A stretch of DNA of 64,000 nucleotides, from IMG/VR virus record IMGVR_UViG_3300042564_002819, positions 266,025-330,024 of that record. One strand, written 5' to 3'. The translations under genes and the position numbers were made by a program. Of this stretch, positions 24,636 through 51,772 are shown piece by piece. The DNA comes from a virus. Numbering within the stretch: position 1 is the first letter of the stretch; each line of letters begins with the position of its first letter. The notes under the pieces are model-generated. The model worked only from the letters and a program-made list of their open reading frames with translations. It searched no databases and was not told where the DNA came from.

Positions 24636-24691
24636 GTGATATTCCTTGTATAACTAAAACGTATTTATAAAACTTAAAATAAGAGAGATAA

Positions 24692-25123: not shown

Positions 25124-25192
25124 GGCCAAAGGCTTAGATCACATCAAGTTAAACTGTATTATTTCTATATACTGTCATTTTATAAATATTTT

Positions 25193-25705
25193 ATGAGGGT
25201 ATTACTAATAATAACGCTATTATTATCTCTTTCTGCTTGTGCTGATTTTAAGAAAATTCTTCGACCCGAACCTACACCAGAACCGATAAAAACAGCAATA
25301 GAAAAAGTAGGTTGGAACGAGCATCAAGACCGCAGAGAAATAAGAGAATTTACTGGTGTAGATCCAGTAAGTACACAATGGTGTGCTGCGTTTGTAAACG
25401 CAGTTCTTGAAGAAAATGGGTTACCTGGATCGGAGTTCTATAACGAAAATCCACTGTTAGCAAGAAGTTTTCTGTCCTGGGGTGTAGAGGTAGAAGAGCC
25501 CGAATACGGCGATATTGTAGTATTTGCTCGAGGCAATGAAGCTTGGAAGGGTCATGTTGGGTTTTATGTAACTTCGACATATTTAGAAGGTCAAAAACAC
25601 TACTTAGTTCTTGGCGGAAATCAAAACAACAGTGTCACATACAAAGCATATCCTACTCGTAGACTGCTTTCTGTAAGACGACTTACAACAGAAGATACTG
25701 AATAA
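25193..25705 (+). CDS. lipoprotein, CHAP/NlpC-P60-like (TIGR02594-type) putative peptidoglycan hydrolase
   Basis: lipobox LSAC; conserved Cys (TQWCAAFVNAV) and His (WKGHVGFYV) spaced as in Cys-His amidases. Confidence 0.5.
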   Translation: MRVLLIITLLLSLSACADFKKILRPEPTPEPIKTAIEKVGWNEHQDRREIREFTGVDPVSTQWCAAFVNAVLEENGLPGSEFYNENPLLARSFLSWGVEVEEPEYGDIVVFARGNEAWKGHVGFYVTSTYLEGQKHYLVLGGNQNNSVTYKAYPTRRLLSVRRLTTEDTE

Positions 25706-25718
25706 AATTTAGTTTAAT

Positions 25719-25795
25719 GCTCTCGTAGCTCAATGGATTAGAGCGTCGGTCTACGAAACCGAAGGTTAGAGGTTCGAGTCCTCTCGAGAGTGCCA
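25719..25795 (+). tRNA. tRNA-Arg(ACG)
   Basis: anticodon stem TCGGT/ACCGA, loop CTACGAA. Confidence 0.75.
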
Positions 25796-25804
25796 AAATA
25801 CTAG

Positions 25805-25833
25805 TTGACACTGGCATAGACAAGTGTTATTGT
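25805..25833 (+). promoter_or_regulatory. sigma70-like promoter
   Basis: TTGACA-N17-TATTGT. Confidence 0.45.
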
Positions 25834-25858
25834 GAGTGCAACAAGAAAGGAAATACAC

Positions 25859-26155
25859 ATGAATAAAATTCTAATTTCTGCACTTTTTGCCTTTGTTTCT
25901 ACTGCTGCTACTGCAAAAACAGTTTATTACCCCGAAGCTGCATGTAACGAAATTCTCAGCAGCGAATACAGCACTGGTGGGGGTGATTCCAGCTGGGAGA
26001 TGTACGAAATTCTTTGCCGTGACGCTAATGGAAAATACACTACCTTTGTTACCAGCTGGATGAGTGTTGCAGGGTTCTTTGGTATGGGTCGAGTTGCATA
26101 CGAAGAAACGATTGACCTTGTACCCTACAACGGTACTACATTGAAGGCTGAATAA
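25859..26155 (+). CDS. secreted small protein
   Basis: signal peptide MNKILISALFAFVSTAATA; AAGAAAGGAAA RBS. Confidence 0.4.
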   Translation: MNKILISALFAFVSTAATAKTVYYPEAACNEILSSEYSTGGGDSSWEMYEILCRDANGKYTTFVTSWMSVAGFFGMGRVAYEETIDLVPYNGTTLKAE

Positions 26156-26156
26156 A

Positions 26157-26600
26157 ATGAAAATCGAATATCGTAAAGGCAACATGTTTGAAACTGACAT
26201 CCTGCATATTGCACATGGCTGCAATGCACAAGGTGTTATGGGATCTGGCGTTGCTAAGATTGTAAAAGAAGATTACTTTGATGCATATCGTTTCTACGCA
26301 GAACAGTACGACGAGCATGGACTTAAATTAGGAGATGTGCAGTTTGTTCCTGCAAACGGCAAAGTAATCATCAATGCTGTTACGCAGAATCTGTACGGCA
26401 AAGACGGTCGTCGTTTTGTTAATTACGAAGCAGTTGCAGAGTGCATGAGAACTATTAATAGTGTACTTAAGCAAAGTGGCGAAACTCATGTTGCTATGCC
26501 GCAAATTGGTGCCGGCCTTGGTGGCGGCGATTGGCGTGTGATTGAAGCAATCATTGAAAGCGAAATGACAGACATTCAACCTGTGGTGTATGTACTGTGA
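26157..26600 (+). CDS. macro domain (ADP-ribose binding/hydrolase) protein
   Basis: GNMFETDILHIAHGCNAQGVMGSGVA and MPQIGAGLGGGDW match Macro-domain glycine-rich loops. Confidence 0.75.
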   Translation: MKIEYRKGNMFETDILHIAHGCNAQGVMGSGVAKIVKEDYFDAYRFYAEQYDEHGLKLGDVQFVPANGKVIINAVTQNLYGKDGRRFVNYEAVAECMRTINSVLKQSGETHVAMPQIGAGLGGGDWRVIEAIIESEMTDIQPVVYVL

Positions 26601-26773
26601 CAACACCCTTAGCAGATCAGAAGATATTCTCACTCAATGATCTCATTGAAATGGGTCTTATTACACGTAAACAGTTAGAAGATCACATCCGATACATGGA
26701 AGCAAAACAGTTAGTAAAAGAACTGTTTCCAGGAATGTTTTAAAAATAAAGAATAGGTAGCCGCGACTACCTT

Positions 26774-26905
26774 GGCTAGGAGACTATTTGCATTGTGCAT
26801 CGTGGGGCCTTTGTGTAGTAGACTGTTTCGTCTAACGGAGAGGACGCCGGTGGAGATCCGGAGATACAGGTTCGAGTCCTGTAGCAGTTTTGCTCCTAGC
26901 CAAAA
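26774..26905 (+). ncRNA. tRNA-like element with 9-bp terminal stem and canonical T arm (about 130 nt)
   Basis: GGCTAGGAG...CTCCTAGCC closing stem; ACAGG-TTCGAGT-CCTGT T arm; extra hairpin AGCA-GTTT-TGCT; too long for a tRNA. Confidence 0.3.
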
Positions 26906-26912
26906 TAATTTA

Positions 26913-26988
26913 GCCTTCGTAGCTCAACTGGAAGAGCAAGGGATTTCTACTCCCTAGGTTGTGGGTTCGACTCCTGCCGGGGGCACCA
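26913..26988 (+). tRNA. tRNA-Arg(TCT)
   Basis: anticodon stem AGGGA/TCCCT, loop TTTCTAC; acceptor GCCTTCG/CGGGGGC with two G-U pairs. Confidence 0.7.
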
Positions 26989-26997
26989 AAAAAGCTG

Positions 26998-27026
26998 TTG
27001 ACACAGACTTGGCACTATGCTACAAC
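26998..27026 (+). promoter_or_regulatory. island promoter unit 1
   Basis: GTTGACA ... TATGCT/TACAAC, GAGGAA RBS. Confidence 0.45.
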
Positions 27027-27058
27027 AAGTTATTGAATAACACATGAGGAACACTGAG

Positions 27059-27448
27059 ATGAAGACTGCTTACAAGAACCGTGACGGCGAATGGGTTGTG
27101 GCCGAGCAGATCAAGATGAGCCGGTATGACCTTGAAGGTTCGGTAGATTCGATTAAGGCTGCACTGGACGAGGTTCGCGACCGTGCTACCGCAATGGGTA
27201 TGGTGGGTGAAGGCACTGTTGACATCAGCCTGAACCGCGGCTTCTACTCGGACGACTACGAAATAGAAGTGGAATACTCCTTCACTCGGTATGAATACCC
27301 TGTGGAGATGGAGCGGCGTTTGGAGCGTGAGGCCAAGGATAAGGCTGCGGCTGCTGCCAAGCGTAAGGAAGCCGCCCAGAAGCGGAAACTCAAGAACGAT
27401 CCTGAGTATGTGGAGTTTGAACGGCTCCGGGCCAAGTTTGGTGGTTGA
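27059..27448 (+). CDS. hypothetical protein (GC-rich island gene 1)
   Basis: about 50% GC versus about 38% background; own promoter and RBS; Lys/Ala/Glu-rich C-terminus. Confidence 0.5.
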   Translation: MKTAYKNRDGEWVVAEQIKMSRYDLEGSVDSIKAALDEVRDRATAMGMVGEGTVDISLNRGFYSDDYEIEVEYSFTRYEYPVEMERRLEREAKDKAAAAAKRKEAAQKRKLKNDPEYVEFERLRAKFGG

Positions 27449-27504
27449 CAACACTCTCCTGCTGTGCTATAACAACAGCATAGGGCAACACGAGGAGAAA
27501 TCAA
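27445..27504 (+). promoter_or_regulatory. island promoter unit 2 with conserved leader
   Basis: GTTGACA-N17-TATAAC then CATAGGGCAACACGAGGAG leader. Confidence 0.55.
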
Positions 27505-27852
27505 ATGCCTTGTAGAGTCAACGACGAAGACTGGAAACCGCGTAAAGAAACCCGCCACGGGATGGATATCGAATCTTTCGAAGCTACACTTTGCGGCGTC
27601 TTCACTGCTGCAGAGGAAGGCGCCTTTGCGCCTACGGTTGTTGGCGGAGTTGATGGCTTGCTGGATGTGATCGACTGGAAAGAAGCCGGAGTGAAACGCA
27701 AGACCGTTGAAGCATGGTGGAAGCGGCATAAGGCAGAAGATGCTGCCCGCCTTGCTCGCGAATCTGCTGAACGGCGTAAGGCTGAACTCAAGCGGATTGC
27801 GATCGGCAAACTCACTGCAGAAGAACTGGAAGTGTTGGGGATCAAACTCTAA
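27505..27852 (+). CDS. hypothetical protein (island gene 2)
   Basis: 115-aa ORF, GC-rich, own promoter and SD. Confidence 0.5.
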   Translation: MPCRVNDEDWKPRKETRHGMDIESFEATLCGVFTAAEEGAFAPTVVGGVDGLLDVIDWKEAGVKRKTVEAWWKRHKAEDAARLARESAERRKAELKRIAIGKLTAEELEVLGIKL

Positions 27853-27862
27853 CACTTTCTGG

Positions 27863-27923
27863 TTGACATCCTACCTACACCGTGCTATGTATATTGTATA
27901 GGGCAACAAGAGGACAACCACAG
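27863..27923 (+). promoter_or_regulatory. island promoter unit 3 with conserved leader
   Basis: GTTGACA-N17-TATGTA then TATAGGGCAACAAGAGGA leader. Confidence 0.55.
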
Positions 27924-28175
27924 ATGCCGAATCCTGCTACTGCTCCCCGTGACGAATTGAACGAGTTTACTCGCTCTGTATGGCTGCTTGGTAACAGCAA
28001 CTGGGGTAATCACGGTGTACGTCTTCGGAACGGGTTGATTGTCAAACCGATCTACAAGCCCGCAGAAGACGAGACCAGTGAAGATGCATTCTTCACCGAA
28101 GACTATGAATACTGCTGGAACCTGGACGGCACTTCGGTAACCCGCAGGGACTTTGATATGATGGAGATCGTGTGA
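27924..28175 (+). CDS. hypothetical protein (island gene 3)
   Basis: 83-aa ORF from the ATG 8 nt after the GAGGA box. Confidence 0.45.
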   Translation: MPNPATAPRDELNEFTRSVWLLGNSNWGNHGVRLRNGLIVKPIYKPAEDETSEDAFFTEDYEYCWNLDGTSVTRRDFDMMEIV

Positions 28176-28176
28176 T

Positions 28177-28584
28177 ATGATCAGAGACCTATTCGTTCCT
28201 GTGGCTGAACTGCTGTTCTGGTTCACCGGCGGAGAACTACTGCTGAATACCTGGTGGTTCTTTGTGTGGGTTGTTGGTGGTGCGTTCCTTGTAACCTTGC
28301 CGCTGTGGTTAGGTATGCGTCTGGCCAGACGTGGTAGTAACCTCAAGTGGATACCTGGCACACTCTTCCTAGTCGGCTTCTTCCCTGCCTTACTGCTGAT
28401 CACCAGCCCAGGCATCATCCAAGCCGACTTGATGGAAGAATGCCTACCCGTCCAGACCGTAACAGTGGATACCGCACAGGTCAAAGGTATTGAAGTTCGA
28501 GTTCGCCAGTGTCGCTTCAAGGCCAACTACTATGACAAAAATTATGGTGAATGGCAAGCCTGGGCGGTTGACCGGCACCAATAA
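28177..28584 (+). CDS. membrane protein (island gene 4), about 4 TM segments
   Basis: translationally coupled to gene 3; hydrophobic N-terminal half. Confidence 0.45.
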   Translation: MIRDLFVPVAELLFWFTGGELLLNTWWFFVWVVGGAFLVTLPLWLGMRLARRGSNLKWIPGTLFLVGFFPALLLITSPGIIQADLMEECLPVQTVTVDTAQVKGIEVRVRQCRFKANYYDKNYGEWQAWAVDRHQ

Positions 28585-28869
28585 CTGTATTATAAGCTGC
28601 ATAAGGAGAGACCGGCAACTTGTGTAGTGCATGTAGTGACGACTTGCGGATAACAGGTGGGATCGTGACATGTTGTAAATCTTTATGTAAGGGGTCGACA
28701 CTTTATATAGAGAGAACGCTGCATACGCTGTGGGACCTCGGCGTATCATTAAGGTGATCAAATCACGCAGGGGTAAAAGCCCTAATGAGGGGTCCTAGGA
28801 ATTAAAGGAAATACTGTGAGATATAGAAAGTTTTACGACGACTTCTAGGCTATAACCTAGGAGAATCAA

Positions 28870-29076
28870 ATGGCAAAATCACCTGTTTACGGCAGAGGCC
28901 GTAATCGTAAACATAGAGGGCACCGCGGCCCTGTTCACGCTGCGGCTGCTAACATCAATATGCGTGGCAAAAAAAGCAAACCTGACCACTGCTGGTGCTG
29001 TATTTGTATTGACATGCGTGAAGATATCTTGTATCGTATACACAAGAAGGAGATGAGAGATGAAAGAGACACGTAA
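28870..29076 (+). CDS. small basic Cys-rich ORF (doubtful)
   Basis: GGAGAA RBS but odd composition. Confidence 0.25.
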   Translation: MAKSPVYGRGRNRKHRGHRGPVHAAAANINMRGKKSKPDHCWCCICIDMREDILYRIHKKEMRDERDT

Positions 29077-29584
29077 GTATCTAGTATTTTTAGACATTGA
29101 CGGCGTTTTTACTAGCTCTCGTGTTCACTTTGCACACGCTGCTGCTTATGAAATGTGGCACAGATTTGATCCTGTAGCAGTTGATTTTATGAACAAGATT
29201 CATGACAGATATCCTGTGGAGTTTGTGATCATGAGTACTTGGAAGGACAACCTTCGCAGTGACGATAACAACGTAAAACACTGGGTTCATGCTGCGTTTG
29301 GCAACAGTGGCTTTCGTGGGCAACTTGCTACACCTTGGAAAACAGATCCTGACAACGTCATCTGGCAGCGTAAAGGTGCAAATGATCGTGCCTACGAAGT
29401 AAAAGAATATTTAGAACTATACGCAACAGATATAAAAGATTACATTTTGTTTGATGATAATCGCTATCAATTCAAAGAAGTGCTAGGCGTTAATCGCCTA
29501 GTTCATACAGATCACGAAAATGGTCTGTTATACAAGCATATGCTAAATGCTCATAGTTTGATGGGACAGTGGCACGAGCGGTGA
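29060..29584 (+). CDS. HAD-superfamily phosphatase (paralog 1)
   Basis: motif I LVFLDIDGVF; 174 aa. Confidence 0.55.
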   Translation: MKETRKYLVFLDIDGVFTSSRVHFAHAAAYEMWHRFDPVAVDFMNKIHDRYPVEFVIMSTWKDNLRSDDNNVKHWVHAAFGNSGFRGQLATPWKTDPDNVIWQRKGANDRAYEVKEYLELYATDIKDYILFDDNRYQFKEVLGVNRLVHTDHENGLLYKHMLNAHSLMGQWHER

Positions 29585-29616
29585 CATCGCTCGGAATAAT
29601 AACAAAGGAAACAGAG

Positions 29617-29826
29617 ATGACTAAAGAACAAGTTTTAAAATCGCTACCCACGTTTAAATTGCTGGCATGGGGAGAAACCGCAGAAACCAGCGGCAATGGA
29701 AAATATGTGCATTTTGATGCAAAAGAATCTAGTACACGTATCTTTACTATTGAAGCAATTCTTGCAGAACTAGATAAGCGTGACGACAATCCTAACCGAG
29801 ATTCTAGAAAAAAGAAGAAAAAATGA
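29617..29826 (+). CDS. hypothetical protein
   Basis: AAAGGAAACAGAG RBS then ATG. Confidence 0.3.
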   Translation: MTKEQVLKSLPTFKLLAWGETAETSGNGKYVHFDAKESSTRIFTIEAILAELDKRDDNPNRDSRKKKKK

Positions 29827-29909
29827 TTAAGTTGCATATTGCTAATTTGGTTAATATTTTGTTATCCAAATTGCAAGAGATATTGTATAATAGATTAATA
29901 AATTAAAGT

Positions 29910-30482
29910 ATGTGTAAGTTAGTTTTTGTTTATAGTTCTATGAATTCCGGTAAAAGCCTAGCTGTTCTTACCAAAAATTATATGTTAAAAGAAAAAGGTT
30001 TTAAGACTGTGCTCATGAAGCCGGCAGTTGATACTAGGACTGCGGCAACTGTGGCTACACGCTTAGGCTTAGAAGAGCCCTGTGTTGTACTAGGAACAAC
30101 TGATTTGCCTAGTCATACTATACTAAAATCAGCACACGACAAGCCTGATTTTATTATTGTTGACGAAGCACAGTTTTTAACAAGCGAACAAGTTTGGGAC
30201 CTAGCTGGCTTAGTCGACAACTGGGGCATAAACGTGTATTGCTATGGTCTACGACTTAACTGGCAAGGAGAGTTTTTTACAGGATCGGAAGCACTGATGA
30301 AAATTGCTGATGTGCTAGAACCAATCGAAAACTTCTGTCAAATAAATAAAGGAGCACTAGCATTCTTTCATATTAAAAAAGCAGGTGGCGATAATCCTGT
30401 AGAAGTTGGAATGGAAGACATGTATGACACTGCGTCTAGAAAAGCCTGGAAGCAGTGGTATGACACAAAAAGGCCTCTGTAG
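29910..30482 (+). CDS. tdk: thymidine kinase
   Basis: VFVYSSMNSGKSLAVL P-loop plus FIIVDEAQFL; extended TGTATAAT promoter upstream. Confidence 0.85.
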   Translation: MCKLVFVYSSMNSGKSLAVLTKNYMLKEKGFKTVLMKPAVDTRTAATVATRLGLEEPCVVLGTTDLPSHTILKSAHDKPDFIIVDEAQFLTSEQVWDLAGLVDNWGINVYCYGLRLNWQGEFFTGSEALMKIADVLEPIENFCQINKGALAFFHIKKAGGDNPVEVGMEDMYDTASRKAWKQWYDTKRPL

Positions 30483-30548
30483 CTCAATGGATAGAGCAGC
30501 AGACTTCGAATCTGTAGGTTGGGCGTTCGAGTCGCTCCAGGGGTACCA
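30473..30548 (+). tRNA. tRNA-Arg(TCG)
   Basis: starts inside the tdk stop codon; loop CTTCGAA. Confidence 0.7.
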
Positions 30549-30610
30549 AAATAACACTTGATCTCTTACTTTGCATAGTGTAAGCTGTAAGTATAGTAAA
30601 GGAGAATCAA

Positions 30611-30790
30611 ATGTGGAAACTTTATATTATGGAATCTGAACGCGGTTGGGGTCAACGAGTTGACGAAATACTAAAGTTCGACACGTATGAAGAGGCCGAT
30701 AAATACAAAAAAGAATTTAACAGTAAAAACAATCTTCCTGAAGTGCCTGATTGGTACATGTATGCAGATGGACCTGTTAAAGTAGATTAA
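30611..30790 (+). CDS. hypothetical small protein
   Basis: 59 aa, strong AAAGGAGAA RBS, wedged between two tRNAs. Confidence 0.45.
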   Translation: MWKLYIMESERGWGQRVDEILKFDTYEEADKYKKEFNSKNNLPEVPDWYMYADGPVKVD

Positions 30791-30874
30791 GTCGCTGTGG
30801 TGTAATGGTAGCCACGACAGCTTGAGGTGCTGTTGCCGCAAGGCGTGGGAGTTCGAATCTCCCCAGCGACACCA
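30791..30874 (+). tRNA. tRNA-Leu(GAG)
   Basis: class II; acceptor GTCGCTG/CAGCGAC; loop TTGAGGT; variable arm TGCCGCAAGGCG. Confidence 0.75.
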
Positions 30875-35776: not shown

Positions 35777-36220
35777 ATGTTAATCGTATTTGATATTGAT
35801 GGAACACTGGCTAACATCGAGCATCGTTTGGACTATGTTCGTAGCAAGCCCAAGAACTGGGCTGCGTTTGATGCTGGCATTCCGAATGATAAAGTAAACG
35901 AGCCTGTAGCAGAAGCATTCCGCTCGCTGTCTGCATTTAACACTATCATTCTTGCGAGTGGGCGGAATGAGCGTAGTCGCTCTGCTACTGAAAAGTGGCT
36001 ACAGAGCAATGGGTTTTATGAATACGAAAAACTCTACATGCGTAAGGCAGACGACTTTCGCGGTGACGACATTGTGAAGCAGGAAATCCTGGATCAAATC
36101 GTTGCTGACTACGGTAAGAAGCCGGACATGGTGTTCGACGACAGGCCTCGCGTGGTTCGCATGTGGCGTGATAACGGTATCTTTGTGTTTAACGTATACC
36201 AAGGTGAGGAGGACTTCTAA
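35777..36220 (+). CDS. HAD-superfamily phosphatase (paralog 2)
   Basis: motif I LIVFDIDGTL, motif IV VFDDR. Confidence 0.55.
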   Translation: MLIVFDIDGTLANIEHRLDYVRSKPKNWAAFDAGIPNDKVNEPVAEAFRSLSAFNTIILASGRNERSRSATEKWLQSNGFYEYEKLYMRKADDFRGDDIVKQEILDQIVADYGKKPDMVFDDRPRVVRMWRDNGIFVFNVYQGEEDF

Positions 36221-37300: not shown

Positions 37301-37329
37301 ACTATATTTATGTTTGAAATAAATATAAT

Positions 37330-40300
37330 ATGAGATTAAGAAACCTTTTTGAAGTACAAGTGCAACCAGGTGAACGCAGAGGATTTTCGCTGCGGTTGAA
37401 GCGTCTTGAAGATTTGCAAGTAAAAATTGCAGAAATACAAAATACTATAAGCGAACTTGGTAATGTTAGCGTTCCAGAAAACTTAAAAAAACAAATGGAA
37501 GATCTTATCGATGCTGCTAAAATAGAAAAAGAAAAAATCTATGCAGAAGTATCTGACGCAGAAGTAAAAAATCCAAGAATTCAAGGAATACCTGGATCTG
37601 TCATGAAGTTACTTAGAGGCATAGAAAAAAATGCTTCAACTATAATGAACGCATACAGAAAAACTGGAAAATATCTCTATAGAGGAATCAAATCTTCCGA
37701 AGACGCACTTTATGGAAAACCTTTTGACATCAGAAAAGCCAAGGATAGTAATGTAGATTTAAGTAATGCATTAAATCAATCCTTAGCAGACCAAGGATTT
37801 AATGCTAGAAGAGACAACACTACTTTTACTTCTGGTTCTTATAATCAGGCTAGTAATTACGGTACTGTGTATATAATATTTCCTAGAGATGGGTTCTCAT
37901 TCCATTACAGTAAAAAGATAAGAGACCTTGTTTTAGATACCGGCAAGATTGATATGTTACTGGATCCCGAAATAACAGGTTATATCGAAAGTGCTATACG
38001 TTCTAACTGGAGCAATCTCAAAAACTATTTTTCTTATAAATTTAGTGGAGATAAATTCTTTACAGGTTATGAATATCAAAAAGATTTAGATGGGTTACAA
38101 CGTGCAGTAGCAGACGGTGTGCTTCCACAAGAATTTGCAAAATATAAGACTTTTTATGATCTAGTTGATCCTGCAAAAGTTATAGCTAATTTTCAATACA
38201 ATCAAACTGATCTCGACAGTGCTATAACTTCCGAACATGAAGTCATGATTACAGGACCGTATTATGCTGTTAAAACAGAGTCCTTTCAAGATTATATTGA
38301 CAAATATATTAAAATGACAGCAAATGGTGAATTTGATGTCACTCCAGATAACAAAAAAGAAAAAACTACTTTAAATCAAAAAATACAATCTATAGTAGGC
38401 GGTTCCGCGCCTGAGTTTGCAATAGGAGATTGGGTGCAGCATAAGTACGAAGGATTTAAAGGTGAAGTTGTTGACTATTACCATACCAATGACTTTGTTC
38501 AAATTAAAGATTATGCCGGAAAACTAAAATTAGTCAATAAGAAAAATATTGATAAAATTAAAACTCCTGAGATGCCCGACTACCAGCCCGGCGATAAAGT
38601 TTATCTAAGAACAAAAGACACAGAATGGGAATATTATAATAATAAAAAATACAAGGTAGTAGACTCTGATAAGTTTACCGTAACAGTTCAAAAAGGCAGT
38701 TACGACACCACAATTACATTACCTAAATTGTTAACCGAACCTGCTCCTAAATTTGATACCAAAGATCCAAGTGTAGGAGACACAGTTCATGTTACCAAGG
38801 GCGATTTTGAAAACATGTACGGAACTATTACATATGTTTCTAGTTACAGTAAAGATATTGATGTTGACTTCGGAGACAGCGATTCGCACACTGTTCAAAA
38901 AGGATCTTACGAAGTTATTGATCCTGCAACAAAACCTGCAGATGCAAACTCTATTGCATCAAAGTTTAAAGAAGGTGATTACGTTAGAATCTCTGACGAC
39001 GGGTTTGATTACAGTGGTCTTGTAGCGGTAATTAATAAACCTGGTTTATCAAAATCAAGAGTATATCCGTTCGGCGAAAAAAGTTATGCTTTAAGTATAA
39101 AAAATTCTAGATTAAAAGCTATTGATGAAGATGAATTTAAAAAACAATCGTTTAGCATAACAGATCAAGTAGTTGTATCTGGCGGCAAGCATGATGGAAA
39201 GAGTGGAAAACTTAATTATGTAAGCTTTGATGGAACTATGGAAATAGTTGTCAGTAGTGGTAACACCATAGAAGTACCCGGAAAATATGTTTTTAATCAA
39301 AACGTAAATGGTTCTCCTGAAAATAACGAGAATAAAGAAACAATTAAAAAAGGTGATTTTGTAAAAATCTCAGACGACTCGGACTTGTTCCCAGGTTCTG
39401 TAGCAAAAGTAGTTGTAAAGAATTCCGGCGAAAAATCTACAATATTAGTAAACAACGACAACAATCTCGATTATATTATTGATACAAAATATCTAACCAA
39501 GATTGATGAAAATGAATTTAACAATAAAAAGCTGTCAACCGGCGACGAAGTCAATGTCACAGACGGATATTATAAAGGAAAAACTGGAAAAATAAAATCG
39601 TTTGGGACTGATGGTCCTGTAAGAGTTGATATAACTTCGCCGTCCACAGGGGATACATTTACAATTAAGGTACTTCCACAATACTTGGAAAAAATAAATC
39701 AAAGCAGTGACGACTTAATTGATTTAATGGATCTTGAGTTTGAACCGATGGACGAGCCTACTGATTTTAAAAATAATGAAACTAAAAAATTTAAAGTCGG
39801 CGACAGCGTAAAAGTAATTAATGGTAAACACAAAGGAAAAACTGGAAAAATAAATTACCTATATACGTATACAAAAGAAGCGTATGTTGACTTCGACGGT
39901 GAATATCACGACATTGAGTTAAAAGACTTAGAGTTAGACAAAGAAGAATCAAAAACTGATAGCAATTTTAACAAAGACGAATTAAAAAAGCTAATCAGTC
40001 AAGGAAAAGAAAAAGGTTTTATAACCTATAATCAACTAAACGATGTAGTGCCTTCGGACAAAGTTACTTCTGAAGAAATTGAAGATATAATGGATATGTT
40101 AAATGAATTAGGAATCAATTTAGTTGATGCTGAAAAAGACTCGGCTCCATCAGGTGAAACTCCACAGGAATTACAAGCAAGAATAAACGATCCAGATACA
40201 AAAGCGTTCCTTAAACAAGCATTTGCAGATCCTGATGTAAAAGAACTAGTGAGTAATATAATCAAAAAGAAAATTATAACAACCGACGACATTGATAATA

Positions 40301-40389
40301 TATCTGTTCTAGTAGGATATGACAAGTATTTGTTTGGCATAAAACCATATATCGAACTTAAAGGCGTTGTATACCAACCTACTACTTGA
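37330..40389 (+). CDS. multidomain protein: Alt-like ADP-ribosyltransferase candidate, about 8 KOW-like repeats, C-terminal sigma70 region 1.1-like domain
   Basis: ART R-S-E candidates YLYRGIK / TFTSGSY / SEHEVMITG; repeats GDxVxVxxGxxKGKxG (e.g. GDEVNVTDGYYKGKTGKI, GDSVKVINGKHKGKTGKI); C-terminus ELKKLISQGKEKGFITYNQLNDVVPSDKVTSEEIEDIMDMLNELGINLVD versus E. coli RpoD QLKLLVTRGKEQGYLTYAEVNDHLPEDIVDSDQIEDIIQMINDMGIQVME. Confidence 0.55.
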   Translation: MRLRNLFEVQVQPGERRGFSLRLKRLEDLQVKIAEIQNTISELGNVSVPENLKKQMEDLIDAAKIEKEKIYAEVSDAEVKNPRIQGIPGSVMKLLRGIEKNASTIMNAYRKTGKYLYRGIKSSEDALYGKPFDIRKAKDSNVDLSNALNQSLADQGFNARRDNTTFTSGSYNQASNYGTVYIIFPRDGFSFHYSKKIRDLVLDTGKIDMLLDPEITGYIESAIRSNWSNLKNYFSYKFSGDKFFTGYEYQKDLDGLQRAVADGVLPQEFAKYKTFYDLVDPAKVIANFQYNQTDLDSAITSEHEVMITGPYYAVKTESFQDYIDKYIKMTANGEFDVTPDNKKEKTTLNQKIQSIVGGSAPEFAIGDWVQHKYEGFKGEVVDYYHTNDFVQIKDYAGKLKLVNKKNIDKIKTPEMPDYQPGDKVYLRTKDTEWEYYNNKKYKVVDSDKFTVTVQKGSYDTTITLPKLLTEPAPKFDTKDPSVGDTVHVTKGDFENMYGTITYVSSYSKDIDVDFGDSDSHTVQKGSYEVIDPATKPADANSIASKFKEGDYVRISDDGFDYSGLVAVINKPGLSKSRVYPFGEKSYALSIKNSRLKAIDEDEFKKQSFSITDQVVVSGGKHDGKSGKLNYVSFDGTMEIVVSSGNTIEVPGKYVFNQNVNGSPENNENKETIKKGDFVKISDDSDLFPGSVAKVVVKNSGEKSTILVNNDNNLDYIIDTKYLTKIDENEFNNKKLSTGDEVNVTDGYYKGKTGKIKSFGTDGPVRVDITSPSTGDTFTIKVLPQYLEKINQSSDDLIDLMDLEFEPMDEPTDFKNNETKKFKVGDSVKVINGKHKGKTGKINYLYTYTKEAYVDFDGEYHDIELKDLELDKEESKTDSNFNKDELKKLISQGKEKGFITYNQLNDVVPSDKVTSEEIEDIMDMLNELGINLVDAEKDSAPSGETPQELQARINDPDTKAFLKQAFADPDVKELVSNIIKKKIITTDDIDNISVLVGYDKYLFGIKPYIELKGVVYQPTT

Positions 40390-40413
40390 CATCTTTGATA
40401 AAAAGTGTATACT
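40386..40413 (+). promoter_or_regulatory. sigma70-like promoter giving a leaderless or near-leaderless mRNA
   Basis: TTGACA-N16-TATACT; ATG 10 nt after the -10, no SD. Confidence 0.5.
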
Positions 40414-40422
40414 ACAAACACT

Positions 40423-41316
40423 ATGAATCAAAAATTACAAGATCATTTAATCGGGTCACTTGTTGGCCTTGCCGTCGGTGATGCAGTAGGCACTACTGTT
40501 GAATTTAAACCGCGTGGCTCATTTCCTAAGATTGTTGACATGATCGGCGGCGGCCCTTTTAGATTGCCAGTAGGGTATTGGACAGATGATACATCTATGG
40601 CATTGTGCCTAGCAGAAAGTCTTATAGCATATCCACTGCTTGATAAAAAAGATTTGTTAACTCGTTTTTGTAACTGGTATAAGAATGGACATAATTCTTC
40701 TACCGGTCGTTGCTTTGACATTGGTAATACAACTGTCTCTGCACTAGAAGAATTTATTCACAGTGGTCAAACGAATAACAATCCTGAAGACTTTTATGCA
40801 GGTAATGGATCTATTATGCGATTGTCTCCTGTGGCAATTGCAAATTATAAAGACTTACACAAAGCAATTAAAATTGCACGTGAACAAAGTGAAACAACTC
40901 ATGAAACTATTAAAGCAACTGCTTCTTGTGAGTTGCTTGCAGAAATTTTAGTTAGAGCATACACTGCTGAAACTAAACAGCAAGTAATGGATATTGAATG
41001 TCCGTTACATTGGCCCGAACCTGTTTGCGATATTGTTGCATCTAGCGTTGTTAAAAAAACTGAAGCAGAAATTAAGTCTTCGGGTTACGTTATTGACACA
41101 TTAGAAGCAGCCGTCTGGGCATTTTTAAATACAGACAACTTTGAGGATGCAGTTTTAATAGCAGTTAATCTTGGACACGATGCTGATACAGTCGGTGCTG
41201 TAACAGGACAAATTGCCGGAGCATACTATGGAGAAACCGGAATTCCTAAACATTGGCTAGAAAAGCTTTATAACCATGAACACATCAGAAACCTTGCAAT
41301 CAAACTTTCCGAATAA
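40423..41316 (+). CDS. ADP-ribosylglycohydrolase (DraG/ARH family)
   Basis: LIGSLVGLAVGDAVGTTVEF and GYWTDDTSMALCLAESL match the ARH di-metal site region. Confidence 0.8.
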   Translation: MNQKLQDHLIGSLVGLAVGDAVGTTVEFKPRGSFPKIVDMIGGGPFRLPVGYWTDDTSMALCLAESLIAYPLLDKKDLLTRFCNWYKNGHNSSTGRCFDIGNTTVSALEEFIHSGQTNNNPEDFYAGNGSIMRLSPVAIANYKDLHKAIKIAREQSETTHETIKATASCELLAEILVRAYTAETKQQVMDIECPLHWPEPVCDIVASSVVKKTEAEIKSSGYVIDTLEAAVWAFLNTDNFEDAVLIAVNLGHDADTVGAVTGQIAGAYYGETGIPKHWLEKLYNHEHIRNLAIKLSE

Positions 41317-41797
41317 AGTAGTAGTTTTCTTAGACCTCGACGGTCCTATCATTGATCTTAAAACTTACAAGACCAACCCGATTGTGTCTTATTATAGAAC
41401 TGGTGGAAATTCAAAGGCTATCGAAAATCTTGTAAAGTTGTGCGACGAGTTTGGTCTTGAAATCGTCACTAATTCTATGCACAACTATTACCAGTTAGGA
41501 GATGATACTCTTCAGGACGATTTAGTATCCTGGGGTATTCCTGTAGATCTTTTTCACAGTGACTGGAGAACTATTTTTCCTAAAGTTAATTACAAGGAAA
41601 TAAAAAGCACTGTTCGGGGAATTGGTAGACTTTACGCTATTGAACAATGGATCAAAGAACATCCTGGGTATAACTGGATTTGTTTTGATGATCGAAAGTT
41701 TACAGAAGATCCGAGACTGATACATATTTCTAGAGAAAACGGAATCGACCAAGGATATTACGAGCAGGCAAGAAAAATTCTAAAAACACTTGCTTGA
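41276..41797 (+). CDS. HAD-superfamily phosphatase (paralog 3)
   Basis: motif I VVFLDLDGPI; ends CFDDRKF. Confidence 0.5.
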   Translation: MNTSETLQSNFPNKVVVFLDLDGPIIDLKTYKTNPIVSYYRTGGNSKAIENLVKLCDEFGLEIVTNSMHNYYQLGDDTLQDDLVSWGIPVDLFHSDWRTIFPKVNYKEIKSTVRGIGRLYAIEQWIKEHPGYNWICFDDRKFTEDPRLIHISRENGIDQGYYEQARKILKTLA

Positions 41798-41843: not shown

Positions 41844-42377
41844 ATGAGCGAACCCGTCTGCACTGTAATGGTTGGCTTGCCTGCTATGGGCAAGTCCACT
41901 CTTGTTAAAGGCATGTGGAAAGATGAAAGCACTTTCATCTACAGCACTGACGATCTTCTTGAGGCCGCTGCTAAAGAACTTGGCAGCACTTACAATGAAG
42001 TGTTTGAAACGCTAATCAAGTCAGTTACTGAGGCAGCAAACGGATCTCTCGATGTTGCCGTCAAGAACCGTCAAGACATCATCTGGGATCAAACCAACTT
42101 GGGTGCAGGCAAGCGTCGTAAAATTATTAATCGTATGCGTCAGGCAGGTTATCAAGTTCGTTGTGTTTGTATCGTTCCTCCTGAAGCAGGACACATCAGT
42201 AATCTCAAGGACTGGAAGTATCGTTTGGCTAACCGCCCTGGTAAAACTATTCCAGATGAGGTGTTGACAAACATGTATCGTTCGTTTACACTGCCTACAG
42301 TAGAGGAAGGGTTTGATATGATTACCTTCTATAACATGCACGGTGCCCTGTTGGGTGTTGACTATGGAGAAGAATAA
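41844..42377 (+). CDS. P-loop polynucleotide kinase-like (Pnk kinase domain-like)
   Basis: Walker A VGLPAMGKSTLV, 177 aa, directly upstream of the RNA ligase. Confidence 0.5.
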   Translation: MSEPVCTVMVGLPAMGKSTLVKGMWKDESTFIYSTDDLLEAAAKELGSTYNEVFETLIKSVTEAANGSLDVAVKNRQDIIWDQTNLGAGKRRKIINRMRQAGYQVRCVCIVPPEAGHISNLKDWKYRLANRPGKTIPDEVLTNMYRSFTLPTVEEGFDMITFYNMHGALLGVDYGEE

Positions 42378-43534
42378 TGCACTACCGTTTTCCTGAGATC
42401 CGTCACATTAGTGATGTGCTTCCGCACATCGAAGGTCGTGAGGAATTTGTTGTAGCAGAGCGTGAAGGCTACACTGTGATCAACTACGTGGTTGCAATGG
42501 CCGACACCTTTGACATGACTGGAGCAGATGACTTGGGCGGTGCAATCCGTCGTGAATGTCGTGGCTTGATTTTTGACCGTGATGGTAACATCATGAGCCG
42601 TCCGTTTCACAAGTTCTTCAACATCAACGAGCGTGAAGAAACTCAAGCACATCGGTTGGATCTCAGTGTTTTGTTTGACCATGTGATCATGGAAAAGATG
42701 GATGGTTCGATGATCCGTCCTATCTTAGTCGATGGACACTTGCGTCTTGCTACCAAGATGGGTGTAACTGAAGTGGCCATGCAGGCCGAAACTTGGCTAG
42801 CTGCTCAGGACCCTATGTTGAAGAAGTGGATGGCTATCATGATGGCACAGGGTATTACTCCGATCTTCGAGTGGGTAAGCCCGTTCAATCAGATTGTGTT
42901 GGCGTATGAAACCGCTGATCTTGTGCTATTGGCACTGCGTAACAACATCACTGGCGAATACCTTGATGTCGGCGATCCAAAAGACGACAAACTGTGGACT
43001 GTGGTTCCGCAGTATGGTTCAGTAGAAGGCAACCTTGGTGACTATATTGCTCGTCAGCGTGGTGCAGAAGGTCGCGAAGGTGACATCATTCGCTTTGCGG
43101 ATGGGCATATGGTCAAGGTCAAGAACGACTGGTATGTGCGTATTCACAAGACTGTGGATCGCATCGTGTTCGACCGTAACATTGTTGCTCTTATCCTCAA
43201 CGAGGAAGTGGACGACGTGTTGCCGATGTTGCCGCAGGTTCAAGCAGATCGTGTTCGTGTATTCGAGCGTCGATTCGCCGAACGGCTTCACGCTGTGGTT
43301 GAAAACTACGAACGCTACTGGAACACTGTAGTAGCATCGGGTCTTGACCGCAAGCGTTATGCTCAAGAGTGGATGCCTACTATTAAGGGCAACGATCCGT
43401 TTGCTACTAACTACGTGTTTGGTCGCTTTGCTGGTCGAGATGGTCGTCAAATGATTCTTGATCATATCGAAAAGAGCATCACTACCAACGTTCGTTGGGA
43501 TGAATGTGCAGCGTGGATGGGGATGGGTCCGTGA
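42377..43534 (+). CDS. rnlA: RNA ligase 1
   Basis: ECRGLIFDRDGN..RPFHKFFNINE..MEKMDGSMI (KxDG nucleotidyl-transferase lysine) and DGHMVKVKNDWYVRIHKT parallel T4 Rnl1 ECRGIMFEMDGE..KEDGSLV..DGSHFKIKSDWYVSLHST. Confidence 0.8.
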   Translation: MHYRFPEIRHISDVLPHIEGREEFVVAEREGYTVINYVVAMADTFDMTGADDLGGAIRRECRGLIFDRDGNIMSRPFHKFFNINEREETQAHRLDLSVLFDHVIMEKMDGSMIRPILVDGHLRLATKMGVTEVAMQAETWLAAQDPMLKKWMAIMMAQGITPIFEWVSPFNQIVLAYETADLVLLALRNNITGEYLDVGDPKDDKLWTVVPQYGSVEGNLGDYIARQRGAEGREGDIIRFADGHMVKVKNDWYVRIHKTVDRIVFDRNIVALILNEEVDDVLPMLPQVQADRVRVFERRFAERLHAVVENYERYWNTVVASGLDRKRYAQEWMPTIKGNDPFATNYVFGRFAGRDGRQMILDHIEKSITTNVRWDECAAWMGMGP

Positions 43535-43921: not shown

Positions 43922-44296
43922 TTGGACACTAAAATGAAATACTGGTCACTGTTTTTAGACGACATTCGGTTTCCGGAAGATGTAAAATTCTTCTATGGCC
44001 CCTATGAGAATCTGCGTATTTGCCGCAGCATGGATGATGCTGTGTGGGCAGTCAAGCAGTATGGTTTGCCTACATTTATTAGTTTCGACCATGACCTTGC
44101 TGACGTTCACTACATCATCGGCGATGGCGAAAAGACTGGCTACACCTTTGCTAAATGGTTCTGTGATTATGTGATGGATAACGATTTGATTTTGCCTGTG
44201 GGCTTTGGATATCATGTTCACAGCATGAATCCAGTTGGTGCTGTGAACATTAGAACTTACATGGAAAACTTTTTAAAGGCATATGACCGTGACTAA
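43922..44296 (+). CDS. hypothetical protein
   Basis: 124-aa ORF. Confidence 0.35.
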   Translation: MDTKMKYWSLFLDDIRFPEDVKFFYGPYENLRICRSMDDAVWAVKQYGLPTFISFDHDLADVHYIIGDGEKTGYTFAKWFCDYVMDNDLILPVGFGYHVHSMNPVGAVNIRTYMENFLKAYDRD

Positions 44297-48890: not shown

Positions 48891-49967
48891 ATGAAATATG
48901 ACGCTCTAGTCTTTATCGGCCGGTTCCAGCCGTTTCACAATGGACACAAGGCAATTGTTGATGCCGCCCTTGAACGAGCAAAAGAAGTAATCATTGTAGT
49001 TGGTTCTAGCTTTTCTTCAAGGAATATCCGAAATCCTTTTACATTTGATGAACGCAGACAGATGATTAAAGCTGTGTTCCCGCAGGAGAACGTTAAAGTC
49101 GTTCCTGTTAGCGATTACCCGTATGATGATAATAAATGGGTTCATGCTGTGCAAAACGTAGTTCGCGGTGCGATGCGTTGGAGTGCTGATCCGATTCGAG
49201 TTGGCCTTATCGGCCATGAAAAGGACGGATCTAGCTACTACTTGAAAATCTTCAAGCCGCTAGGTTGGGGTAACGTTAGCGTAAACAACGTCGACGGCGT
49301 TAATGCAACAGACATTCGCAATATGTTGTTTGCATCTGCTCCGGATAGTTCAACTATTCTTCCAACTATTGTCCATAAAATTTATGAACAATTTGTTCAT
49401 AAAACTATGAATAAACAGGCAGTAGAAACTATGCACTCACTGATTATAAAAGATGGAGTTGTATCACCATGGTTTGAAACGCTGTTCCAAGAATACCAAA
49501 TGATCAAGAAGTACAAGGAAGCATGGAAAGCTGCTCCATTCCCTCCTACTTTCATGACTGTTGATGCTGTTGTTGTTCAAAGCGGACACATCCTTCTTGT
49601 GAAACGTGGCGACATGCCTGGTAAAGGTCTTTGGGCTTTGCCCGGTGGGTTCCTTAATCAAGGTGAAACAATGCTTGACGGTGCCATTCGTGAACTCAAA
49701 GAAGAAACTAAAATCAAAGTTGCTGTGCCTGTACTAAAGGGTTCTATTAAAGCGTTTAACACTTTTGATGCACCTAACCGCAGCCAGCGTGGACGTACTA
49801 TTACACAGGCGTTCTACATTGACCTTGGCTTTGCAGAAGAACTTCCTAAAGTAAAAGGCAGCGACGATGCAGAAAAAGCGTTTTGGGTTCCGTTTCACAA
49901 AGTGAAACAAGAACTTATGTTCGAAGATCACTTTCATATTATCGACCATTTTGTTAACATTGGGTAA
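48891..49967 (+). CDS. natV: bifunctional NMN adenylyltransferase / Nudix hydrolase (NatV-like)
   Basis: N-terminal cytidylyltransferase FIGRFQPFHNGH; C-terminal Nudix box GGFLNQGETMLDGAIRELKEETKI. Confidence 0.75.
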   Translation: MKYDALVFIGRFQPFHNGHKAIVDAALERAKEVIIVVGSSFSSRNIRNPFTFDERRQMIKAVFPQENVKVVPVSDYPYDDNKWVHAVQNVVRGAMRWSADPIRVGLIGHEKDGSSYYLKIFKPLGWGNVSVNNVDGVNATDIRNMLFASAPDSSTILPTIVHKIYEQFVHKTMNKQAVETMHSLIIKDGVVSPWFETLFQEYQMIKKYKEAWKAAPFPPTFMTVDAVVVQSGHILLVKRGDMPGKGLWALPGGFLNQGETMLDGAIRELKEETKIKVAVPVLKGSIKAFNTFDAPNRSQRGRTITQAFYIDLGFAEELPKVKGSDDAEKAFWVPFHKVKQELMFEDHFHIIDHFVNIG

Positions 49968-50317: not shown

Positions 50318-51772
50318 ATGACAAACGTACTAAATCTACTAACTGCTATTATTCGCACTGACAGCTATAAGCTGAGCCAGTGGCTACAATATCCAAAGGA
50401 CACTGTCCGTATTAGTTCATACATCGAAAGTCGTGGTGGCGAAGACGAATCGGTATTCTTTGGTCTACAAGCGTTCATTAAACAGTATATGATGACACCG
50501 ATTACTGTAGCAGATATCAATCGTGCTGAACTTATTGTAAAAGCACACGGACTGCCTTTCAACAGAGAAGGTTGGGAAATCATCGTCAAAGAATACGGCG
50601 GCATTCTGCCGTTGGAAATCGAAGCTGTTCCTGAAGGTACCGTTATGGAGACCCATAACGTGCAAGTGCAGATTGTTAATACCGATCCACGCTTGTTCTG
50701 GTTGACCTCATATGTTGAAACTGCAATGCTTCGCGGCATTTGGTATCCTTCAACTGTTGCTACAAAGAGCCGTAAAATGAAGAAACTCATTGCTGCTGCT
50801 CTTGAACTAACTAGCGACGTTCCTGTTAACGATCAAATCATGTTCAAGCTACACGACTTTGGTGCTCGTGGTGCAAGTTCTTCTGAAACTGCAATGCTTG
50901 GTGGTATGGGTCACCTTGTTAACTTTATGGGTACTGACACTGTGGAAGCACTTGTTGGTGCAATGGAATATTACAACACAGACTCTGTACCTGGGTTTAG
51001 TATTCCTGCTAGTGAACACTCAACAATCACTAGCTGGGGTGGTCCTGCTGGAGAAGTTGTAGCATTTGAAAACATGATCAATACATTTGCCGGTCCCGGT
51101 AAACTGTATGCTTGTGTTAGCGACAGCTACGACATTTACTCTGCCGCACGTGACTTGTGGGGCGGCGTTCTAAAAGAAAAAGTCATTGCTGCCGGCGGCA
51201 CCTTGGTGGTACGTCCGGACTCAGGTGATCCTACTACAGTTCCGATTGAAGTTATTGGCATCCTTATGGATCGCTTTGGATACACTGTTAACAGCAAAGG
51301 CTACCGAGTACTTCCTCCTTACATCCGTCTAATCCAAGGAGATGGTATCAACGAAAAAACTTTGCCTAAGATCTTGTCAAACATGGTTGAAGCAGGTTAC
51401 AGCATTGATAACATTGCATTTGGTATGGGCGGTGGCTTGCTACAAGCGTGGAACCGTGATACACTCAAGTATGCTATGAAAGCTAGTGCTAGACAGGATA
51501 CTGAGGGTGTATGGCACGATGTCTTTAAAGATCCGATCTCAGACCGCGGCAAAGTGTCTAAAAAAGGTCGTCTTGGATTAGTTTATGAGTGCGGGATTGG
51601 AAACTGCGGTTATAGAACTCTTCCAAAGTCGGTTGCTGACAAAAAAGGCAACCTACTGAGAACTGTATATCGCAACGGTGAACTCTTAATTGAGGACACT
51701 TTTGAAAATATTCGCAATCGTGCAAAACTTAAAGTGGAGGAATACACTCATGATGTCGTTGAAAGATATTGA
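50318..51772 (+). CDS. nadV: nicotinamide phosphoribosyltransferase (NadV-like)
   Basis: 484 aa; type II PRTase features (FGARGASS, GMGGGLLQ); adjacent to natV as in KVP40-type phages. Confidence 0.75.
   Translation: MTNVLNLLTAIIRTDSYKLSQWLQYPKDTVRISSYIESRGGEDESVFFGLQAFIKQYMMTPITVADINRAELIVKAHGLPFNREGWEIIVKEYGGILPLEIEAVPEGTVMETHNVQVQIVNTDPRLFWLTSYVETAMLRGIWYPSTVATKSRKMKKLIAAALELTSDVPVNDQIMFKLHDFGARGASSSETAMLGGMGHLVNFMGTDTVEALVGAMEYYNTDSVPGFSIPASEHSTITSWGGPAGEVVAFENMINTFAGPGKLYACVSDSYDIYSAARDLWGGVLKEKVIAAGGTLVVRPDSGDPTTVPIEVIGILMDRFGYTVNSKGYRVLPPYIRLIQGDGINEKTLPKILSNMVEAGYSIDNIAFGMGGGLLQAWNRDTLKYAMKASARQDTEGVWHDVFKDPISDRGKVSKKGRLGLVYECGIGNCGYRTLPKSVADKKGNLLRTVYRNGELLIEDTFENIRNRAKLKVEEYTHDVVERY

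Follow-up and report, generated by a model that had tools for sequence, protein, structure and literature searches.

The Alt protein of bacteriophage T4 is a packaged mono-ADP-ribosyltransferase that acts on Arg265 of the alpha subunit of RNA polymerase (RNAP) and, to our knowledge, it was for decades almost the sole worked example of an injected phage enzyme that reprograms RNAP. Alt is injected into the host cell, where it modifies the host RNAP (PMC2988021). The capsid-targeting sequence (CTS) of T4, MKTYQEFIAE (PMC8442874), is removed from internal proteins after these have been loaded (PMC8442874; PMC3012670). Packaged phage ADP-ribosyltransferases (ARTs) and pairs of an ART with an ADP-ribosylglycohydrolase (ART-ARG pairs) are known ideas, and such a pair has been noted in Aeromonas phages (PMC9503650). 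Here we describe a module of three genes on a 64,000-nucleotide (nt) stretch of viral DNA (hereafter the window; from IMG/VR record IMGVR_UViG_3300042564_002819), in which the gene for a 1019-amino-acid (aa) fusion of an ART-fold domain, KOW repeats and a sigma-70 region 1.1 (hereafter sigma 1.1) lies between a divergent gene for a Zeta-toxin-like kinase and a gene for an ADP-ribosyl(arginine) hydrolase (ARH). We interpret the fusion protein, tentatively and with a little less than even confidence, as a packaged, injected and RNAP-directed ART whose eraser stays unpackaged. An earlier note on this DNA had described the locus as an Alt-like writer next to its eraser; the literature searched contained, as far as we found, no account of the ART-fold family, the ART-KOW-sigma 1.1 fusion or the trio of kinase, ART and ARH. 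The window was compared with five further loci (L004 to L008), with phage Atu_ph07 (L001) and with T4 (L002).

The window shares with L004, L006, L007 and L008 the order kinase (-), ART-KOW-sigma 1.1 fusion (+) and ARH (+); these five are all the loci with enough context. The ART proteins of the other four are 30-63% identical to the window protein in the orthologue alignment (A4), with BLASTP values as low as 25%, and conservation across the orthologues is highest in the ART-fold domain. The three motifs on which the earlier note had based its assignment are present, YLYRGIK at aa 115-121, TFTSGSY at aa 165-171 and SEHEVMITG at aa 301-309, and the ART fold it had expected in the N-terminal third was recovered in an AlphaFold2 (AF2) model of the domain (predicted local distance difference test score, pLDDT, 91). 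In this model the R, S/T and E residues are placed on beta1, beta2 and beta5, so that strand 117-120 contains Y117-R118-G119, strand 164-168 contains T165-S168 and strand 304-308 begins with E304, and a helical insert of about 90 aa separates beta4 from beta5. Structure comparison recognised the split beta-sheet ART core (SCOP d.166.1 fold), among whose families are BC2332 and AvrPphF-ORF2 (PMC3000352). The invariant residues are R118 (in YRG), R135, R161, N163, F166, Y177-G178, P185, D199 and E304; R118 and E304 are conserved in at least 90% of 81 family members and are invariant in 16 orthologues. Judging from the model and these residues, the predicted ART domain would catalyze a reaction dependent on nicotinamide adenine dinucleotide (NAD).

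Membership in the Alt/ModA type, which had also been claimed, did not survive comparison. With a profile of the 81 family sequences, hhalign gave a probability of 0.2% for Alt, 0.2% for ModA and 8% for ModB, the last over LYRGI only; a Foldseek search of viral models (BFVD) returned the domain's own family and retrieved neither Alt nor Mod; and sequence searches of Pfam, NCBIfam and the PDB with the domain and the 81 family members gave zero ART-family matches. The term "Alt-like" thus appears valid as a functional analogy only, because Alt and ModA were matched neither by profile nor by the search of viral models. The ExE motif of the earlier note stood in part: E302 and E304 are both found in the window protein, but the position of E302 is occupied by G, A, N, R, S or K in orthologues, and the first E is a chance feature rather than a family feature. 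In PHROGs the domain falls into phrog_11975, function unknown, and the family is unannotated. A word-indexed profile search returned 80 family proteins and an exhaustive one 8358 representative clusters (50% identity) at E<=1e-3, most members being stand-alone proteins of 250-290 aa. A second family member was sought within the window and none was found. At L005, a tandem array (4353-9792) of four to five ART-fold paralogues and a degenerate copy without YRG surrounds a Zeta-like kinase gene, and one of these paralogues (4362-5153) shows a faint Sigma70_r1_1 match (E=0.045).

Several observations suggest that proteins of this family are packaged. Their N-termini follow the consensus M-[RK]-[LF]-x-[EQN]-[FYL]-[LIF]-x-E, and the pattern ^M.{3,6}[LIMV].E was found in 161 of 221 family proteins (73%), compared with 3 of 86 control open reading frames (ORFs) of the window (3.5%). 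The window protein begins with MRLRNLFE and therein carries an L-x-E motif that is similar to the T4 CTS and the gp21 cleavage site; the N-terminus of T4 Alt, MELITELFDE, is similar to those of the family. Comparable N-termini are found in the kinases of six loci (MKINEITQ in the window, MKISDLLNE, MLINDLFET, MRIYEIDQ, MRIIEITQ and MKIKDLLNE), and the ARH is without a CTS-like N-terminus. Tandem mass spectrometry of Atu_ph07 virions listed gp53 at 87.08 kDa with 31 unique peptides, gp54 at 56.49 kDa, gp55-gp62 at 29.2-31.2 kDa and gp63 at 41.40 kDa, with 3-15 unique peptides each for gp54-gp62 and 3-31 over the whole set (PMC6102473 Table S5). Because the computed masses of the Atu_ph07 family members equal those of gp54-gp62 to 0.01 kDa, every examined Atu_ph07 family member is a virion protein. 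The genome of this phage contains a homologue of gp21, the prohead protease of T4, as well (PMC6102473). By analogy with these proteins, the window ART protein would be packaged as well.

Another line of evidence concerns timing. In the window, ATAAATAN{4,6}ATG was observed six times against 1.08 expected, with none of 100 shuffles reaching six, and at least four of the six occurrences are at ORF starts. In all six loci, ATAAATA is found 4-6 nt before the start codons of both the ART and the kinase genes. For the Rak2-like phage CBB, ATAAATA located before structural genes was read as a late promoter akin to T4 TATAAATA (PMC5259590); exact TATAAATA was not enriched in the window (8 versus 5.1 expected). 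Given a T4-like start site, transcripts from ATAAATA-N4-6-ATG would be leaderless too. Other copies at start codons are located at 9916-9929 (CHASE2-cyclase gene, start 9927), 25182-25195 (ORF 25193), 55200-55214 and 56550-56563(-).

The ARH gene has a promoter of its own, as had been proposed: its TTGACA-16-TATACT, an 11/12 match, was the best match in an 8-kb scan, and an equivalent sigma-70 promoter is found in the same position in L004, L006, L007 and L008 (10-12/12), so that it is present in five of five loci. The accompanying proposal of a leaderless ARH mRNA applies to the window, where the ATG is located 9 nt after the -10 box without a Shine-Dalgarno sequence, but not to the four related loci, which have a leader of 18-26 nt with a Shine-Dalgarno sequence. 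Sigma-70-type promoters with matches of at least 11/12 are located at 14217, 15228, 21718, 34454 and 40386, each with an ATG 7-13 nt after the -10 box, a pattern that points to early mRNAs with a very short leader or none in this phage. That the two promoter classes are kept across divergent loci speaks for a writer and a kinase expressed late and an eraser expressed early.

The assignment of the gene downstream of the fusion to the ADP-ribosylglycohydrolases was fully confirmed (PF03747, E=6.7e-73, 246 bits vs cutoff 26), and the protein has the di-metal-site motifs GYWTDDTS and GHDADTVGA. It matched NCBIfam Tri1 at 1.5e-105 (353 bits, under the equivalog cutoff of 490) and DraG at 3.6e-54 (184 bits, under the equivalog cutoff of 337), and it is 50% identical to Tri1 (PDB 6dre, 1e-81) over 290 aa, starting from residue 70 of the 6dre chain. 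By these scores it appears to be a Tri1-like relative and not a certified equivalog. Specificity for arginine-ADP-ribose is the best guess, since Tri1 and DraG are close and ARH3-type enzymes are far more distant (~1e-16). The nearest phage relatives (~48%) are found in 350-kb Rak2-like jumbo phages. Public gene callers also give 297 aa from the same ATG; a GTG at 40405 was considered as the start and was rejected in favor of the ATG at 40423, which is supported by the gene calls of two sources as well as by the Pfam alignment. The pairing of writer and eraser put forward in the earlier note is reasonable insofar as the adjacency of the ART and ARH genes is kept in five divergent loci, and the ARH would presumably reverse the product of the adjacent ART.

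The macro-domain protein encoded at 26157..26600, which the earlier note had taken for another eraser or reader of ADP-ribose and a potential second remover, does contain this domain (PF01661, E=9e-10, 39 bits vs cutoff 22; phrog_335, 2.3e-42), but a part in this cassette seems less likely. Its best match is the macro domain of DarG (NCBIfam, 2.9e-19, 69.5 bits, far under the cutoff of 250), and the gene precedes the module by 11 kb in the window and follows it at a distance of 5-8 kb in L006 and L007. Because it is DarG-like, distant and loosely syntenic, the macro domain is better read as a separate function, possibly anti-DarT, than as a second eraser of the cassette. In L006 (from 19134) and L007 (16728-17171) the macro gene is beside a Cupin_2 gene, and its position is rearranged in the window phage.

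The remainder of the fusion protein bears on its target. The full-length AF2 model (16 sequences, mean pLDDT 72.6) opens with a short helix and long helices at aa 22-44 and 50-79. The earlier note had counted about eight KOW-like repeats and had suggested detecting them with Pfam; the model contains exactly eight five-stranded barrels, at aa 368-410, 423-471, 485-530, 551-597, 613-656, 677-725, 740-788 and 826-869, and Pfam gave PF00467 at E=1.4e-13 (50.5 bits vs cutoff 22.3). The barrels have a GDxVxV...G motif in common, the region also matched KOW4_SPT5 (Pfam, 3.4e-15) and NusG, UpxY and L24 (NCBIfam), and the repeat number is variable among orthologues. The linker between the last two barrels (pLDDT <50, isoelectric point (pI) 4.07) contains the motif DDLIDLxD(L/I)(E/D)FEPxDEP, which is kept in nearly all orthologues and may be a docking peptide.

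The earlier note had also proposed that the circuit is aimed at the transcription or translation machinery, and the transcription side gains support from a sigma-70 region 1.1 that the note had overlooked. This domain matched Sigma70_r1_1 (PF03979) at E=2.1e-20 (72.9 bits vs cutoff 22.5) over profile positions 3-63 of 81. Solved RpoD chains in the PDB were matched in their N-terminal region 1.1 at E values of about 1e-9 to 4e-10, corresponding to residues 6-62 of E. coli RpoD; in tblastn the stretch shared 42% identity with enterobacterial rpoD, and it matched NCBIfam RpoD at 3.7e-13. In the AF2 model its helices are found at aa 882-932, as expected, and its pI is 4.3. In sigma-70, region 1.1 occupies the downstream-DNA channel of RNAP. 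A docking role of this domain on RNAP, and RNAP or its associated proteins as the target of the enzyme, would be plausible. A search with the C-terminal two-thirds of the protein found about 15 orthologues of 849-1118 aa with the same layout, most of which have sigma 1.1, and the C-terminal five-helix domain is found in most of them, the exceptions being P0001 and P0219-P0221. P0001 had been taken for a short form without the N-terminus; this was rejected as an artefact of an N run (scaffold gap) at L004 ~620-630, and its true start, L004:501, encodes MRIKNLFEAEVKPGERKG, like the other orthologues.

The third member of the module, the kinase, matched Pfam Zeta_toxin (PF06414) at 3.8e-15 (56.3 bits vs cutoff 22.3) and AAA_33 at 7.4e-9, contains the Walker A motif GAPGAGKS, and aligns with positions 257-462 of the 788-position profile of phrog_12810. 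A divergent kinase neighbor is also found in L004-L008; at L005, the stand-alone family member P0003 forms a divergent pair with the Zeta-like kinase, and Atu_ph07 gp53 (778 aa) is an ART-fold domain fused to a Zeta-toxin domain. From the trio at five loci, the P0003/kinase pair and the gp53 fusion, it follows that the core unit is the kinase plus the ART-fold protein, to which the ARH was added in the KOW-sigma 1.1 subfamily. The kinase may act along with the effector. The HAD_SAK_2 gene is a looser partner, because it is located 3' of the ARH gene in only three of the five loci (window, L004 and L008, and not L006 or L007).

Table 1. Features of the module in the window, with the evidence for each
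Feature	Position	Strand	Evidence
Zeta-toxin-like / AAA_33 P-loop kinase, 243 aa	36569..37300	-	Pfam, PHROGs, synteny
Back-to-back ATAAATA-N4-ATG, T4-late-promoter-like, abutting kinase and ART start codons	37298-37311 (-), 37319-37332 (+)		Motif scan, 6/6 loci
1019-aa ART-fold/KOW/sigma 1.1 fusion gene	37330..40389	+	ORF, Pfam, AF2, orthologue alignment
aa 1-85: CTS-like MRLRNLFE, then two long helices	37330..37584	+	N-terminal pattern, AF2
aa 86-345: ART-superfamily-fold domain, phrog_11975	37585..38364	+	AF2 fold, conserved residues
aa 362-871: eight KOW / SH3-like five-stranded barrels	38413..39942	+	Pfam, NCBIfam, AF2
aa 791-819: disordered acidic linker, KOW7-KOW8	39700..39786	+	pLDDT <50, conserved motif
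aa 881-941: sigma-70 region 1.1	39970..40152	+	PF03979
aa 945-1010: C-terminal five-helix domain (TPQELQARINDP...PYIELKGV)	40162..40359	+	AF2, alignment
Sigma-70-type promoter TTGACA-16-TATACT for ARH, overlapping ART stop codon	40386..40413	+	11/12 match
Tri1/DraG-type ADP-ribosyl(arginine) hydrolase (ARH), 297 aa	40423..41316	+	PF03747, NCBIfam, PDB 6dre
HAD_SAK_2 phosphatase, 41-nt overlap with ARH 3' end	41276..41797	+	PF18143 5.4e-9

The window (G+C content 39.9%) belongs to a jumbo phage of the T4 superfamily. No match was obtained when the locus was compared by Megablast with 50,697 phage records, and in the comparison of a 23-kb flank with sequenced phages tRNA genes were the sole match, so the phage seems, at the nucleotide level, to be without a sequenced close relative. 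A protein identical to the 1019-aa product is encoded on metagenomic contigs of up to 330 kb and is named "ribosomal protein L24" in one source. Around the module is an RNA end-healing and sealing island (35777-36220, 41276-41797, 41844-42377, 42377-43534 and 43922-44296) whose members are a HAD_PNKP phosphatase, HAD_SAK_2, a PNK-like AAA_33 kinase, a T4 Rnl1-type RNA ligase and a cREC cyclic-phosphate-processing domain. Genes for NAD+ salvage are located 8-10 kb downstream of the module, namely a nicotinamide mononucleotide (NMN) adenylyltransferase-Nudix fusion (48891-49967) and NAMPT (50318-51772); these could feed the ART with NAD+ or counter NAD-depleting defences. The window also contains 30 tRNA genes in two arrays on either side of the region (22728-30874 and 55105-63777), with two tRNA-??? 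having odd anticodon loops. An unusual set of auxiliary genes is found within 1166-2299, 6531-9271, 9927-11966 and 13036-14214, including an IMPDH/GMP-reductase-like protein, a FecR-like protein beside a curlin-repeat and F5/8 type C protein, a CHASE2-adenylate/guanylate cyclase (9927-11966) and an ornithine/arginine/diaminopimelate (DAP) decarboxylase.

In the interpretation that we prefer, the ART effector and the kinase would be expressed late from the ATAAATA promoters and loaded into the prohead via their N-terminal peptide, with gp21-type trimming probably taking place after L-x-E. The trimmed effector and kinase would then be ejected with the DNA into the next host, as is T4 Alt. There, sigma 1.1 would dock the effector on the host RNAP, possibly assisted by the KOW barrels together with the acidic motif, and the predicted ART domain (R118 / S-T165-168 / E304) would transfer ADP-ribose from NAD+ to RNAP or RNAP-bound proteins, probably on arginine. 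The unpackaged ARH would be transcribed early from its own promoter by unmodified host sigma-70 RNAP and would strip the mark, either ending the early state or shielding the producing cell from new effector made late. A fuller version of this model is more doubtful. According to it, the ART-fold family of more than 8000 clusters would be a capsid-packaged one, whose member here would use sigma 1.1 and KOW to thread the injected enzyme into RNAP, together with a co-injected Zeta-like kinase of the NAD/nucleotide-sugar type, and the early, unpackaged Tri1-type hydrolase would reset the mark, making a timed three-enzyme circuit unlike any described so far.

The surroundings of the module could also be taken to mean that it acts on nucleic-acid ends, with the kinase phosphorylating an RNA or DNA end, the ART domain using ADP-ribose to cap or remove that phosphate, as Tpt1/KptA or DarT would, the products being processed by the ARH and the HAD phosphatase, and the KOW barrels binding RNA. 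The location inside the RNA-repair island is in favor of this explanation, the concept of which exists in the literature (PMC9503650), yet we consider it improbable, for the catalytic layout is R-S-E instead of the H-H-h found in KptA, Tri1 and DraG, which are arginine-specific, stand nearest to the eraser and ARH3 stands far from it, HAD_SAK_2 is not a constant neighbor, and a sigma 1.1 fusion, homologues in virions and a late promoter would be unexpected of a repair enzyme. A different view, which we regard as rather unlikely, is that the ARH, perhaps with the macro protein, serves in counter-defence or in NAD/ADP-ribose housekeeping by acting on marks made by the host (arginine-specific ART toxins, DarT or CmdT-like enzymes) and not on the phage's own mark, with the adjacency of ART and ARH reflecting shared ancestry of related phages. 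Tri1-type hydrolases are immunity proteins against foreign ARTs; an early promoter is what would be expected of an anti-defence gene; the phage has NAD salvage genes of its own and the macro domain is DarG-like. Furthermore, in Serratia phage BF an orthologous ARH neighbors NMNAT and PnuC, and genes of the ART family are absent from its vicinity; on account of this locus an invariable pairing of the ARH with the ART-fold family was rejected. However, in five loci whose ART proteins share only 30-63% identity, the junction of the ART stop with the ARH start and the promoter embedded in it have been kept while the other neighboring genes differ, which argues for selection on the pairing.

The most improbable of the alternatives, in our view, takes the ART-fold domain for an internal head protein without catalysis, which would be structural or an anti-restriction protein of the binding type like T4 IPI*, and the KOW, sigma 1.1 and acidic parts for DNA mimics or decoys that bind and block host proteins with no ADP-ribosylation involved. 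Sigma 1.1 is a DNA mimic and the protein is acidic, as this explanation would have it; an NAD-binding signature was not detectable by sequence methods; and the family occurs in tandem arrays of diverging paralogues (at least eight in Atu_ph07, and four to five with the degenerate copy in L005). Such fast-diverging tandem paralogues are typical of arms races of internal proteins (PMC3012670). Against it, R118, R161 and E304 are invariant or nearly so across very divergent members, exactly at ART catalytic positions, the family is as large as 8358 representative clusters, the only copy without YRG is an obviously degenerate paralogue, and the hydrolase partner is conserved. Taken together, the three alternatives are less likely because of the conserved junction, the invariants at catalytic positions and the sigma 1.1 fusion.

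Our preferred interpretation of a packaged, RNAP-directed ART has difficulties of its own. Its weakest links are catalysis, the missing ExE beside an arginine-type eraser, binding of an isolated sigma 1.1 to RNAP, what the kinase contributes and the extrapolation of packaging from Atu_ph07. The ExE typical of arginine-specific ARTs is not conserved, which is awkward next to an arginine-specific eraser. Sigma 1.1 was lost in P0218 and P0221, and we know of no case in which isolated sigma 1.1 binds RNAP. Virion location is known for distant paralogues in another phage only, the window contains neither a prohead protease gene nor a structural gene, and the 1019-aa protein is acidic (pI 5.1) whereas T4 internal proteins are basic. 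The promoter classes are consensus matches and not mapped transcripts. The ARH of Serratia phage BF and the RNA-repair island, which suggests other substrates, also count on this side.

If the interpretation is correct, the locus indicates that the lifestyle of Alt recurs in an independent family of far wider distribution. It would also offer a testable targeting principle, as a fused host sigma region 1.1 would show delivery of an effector to the DNA channel of RNAP, and the conserved kinase and hydrolase with their late/early promoter split would provide a concrete model of timed, reversible ADP-ribosylation in infection. Thousands of jumbo-phage proteins that are "hypothetical" or misnamed ("ribosomal protein L24", "NusG") would be open to re-annotation, and the ART-fold family may be a source of new ART specificities.

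When compared with the described systems, the window protein resembles T4 Alt in being a large multidomain protein with an R-S-E-type ART core and a CTS-type N-terminus (MRLRNLFE in the window protein, MELITELFDE in Alt), in having homologues in virions and in its presumed target, the host transcription machinery right after injection. It differs from Alt in that there is no detectable sequence or profile similarity and no retrieval by the structure search of viral models, in that the N-terminal ART is here fused to KOW and sigma 1.1, and in that ExE is not conserved; furthermore, T4 is without an adjacent hydrolase or Zeta-like kinase. With region 1.1 of RpoD, the phage domain shares a match to PF03979 well above threshold and an acidic character. 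In contrast, the phage copy is detached from sigma regions 1.2-4, is located at the C-terminal end of an enzyme-repeat fusion and is followed by an unrelated five-helix domain. No described phage effector with a sigma-70 region 1.1 was found in the literature searched. In T4 (L002 11039-13130), srd, annotated as a postulated decoy of RpoD and RpoS, adjoins modA and modB, and this neighborhood is a loose parallel to the phage fusion of a sigma fragment with an ART.

Like Tre1-Tri1 and DraT-DraG, the module has adjacent ART and ARH genes, and its ARH is half identical to Tri1 and clearly related to DraG. However, the N-terminal extension of Tri1 is missing from the ARH, whose score stays under the Tri1 cutoff (353 vs 490 bits), and unlike those pairs the module has an ART of another family, two promoter classes and a kinase as third conserved partner. 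Also close are gp53-gp63 of Atu_ph07, uncharacterised virion proteins of phrog_11975 in the Rak2-like (group 2.2) jumbo phages, which share the ART-fold family and the N-terminal motif. Most of them are single-domain proteins of 250-290 aa, encoded in tandem arrays and unaccompanied by KOW, sigma 1.1 or an ARH, and yet one of them, gp53, mirrors in a single ART-fold/Zeta-toxin fusion the gene pair of the window.

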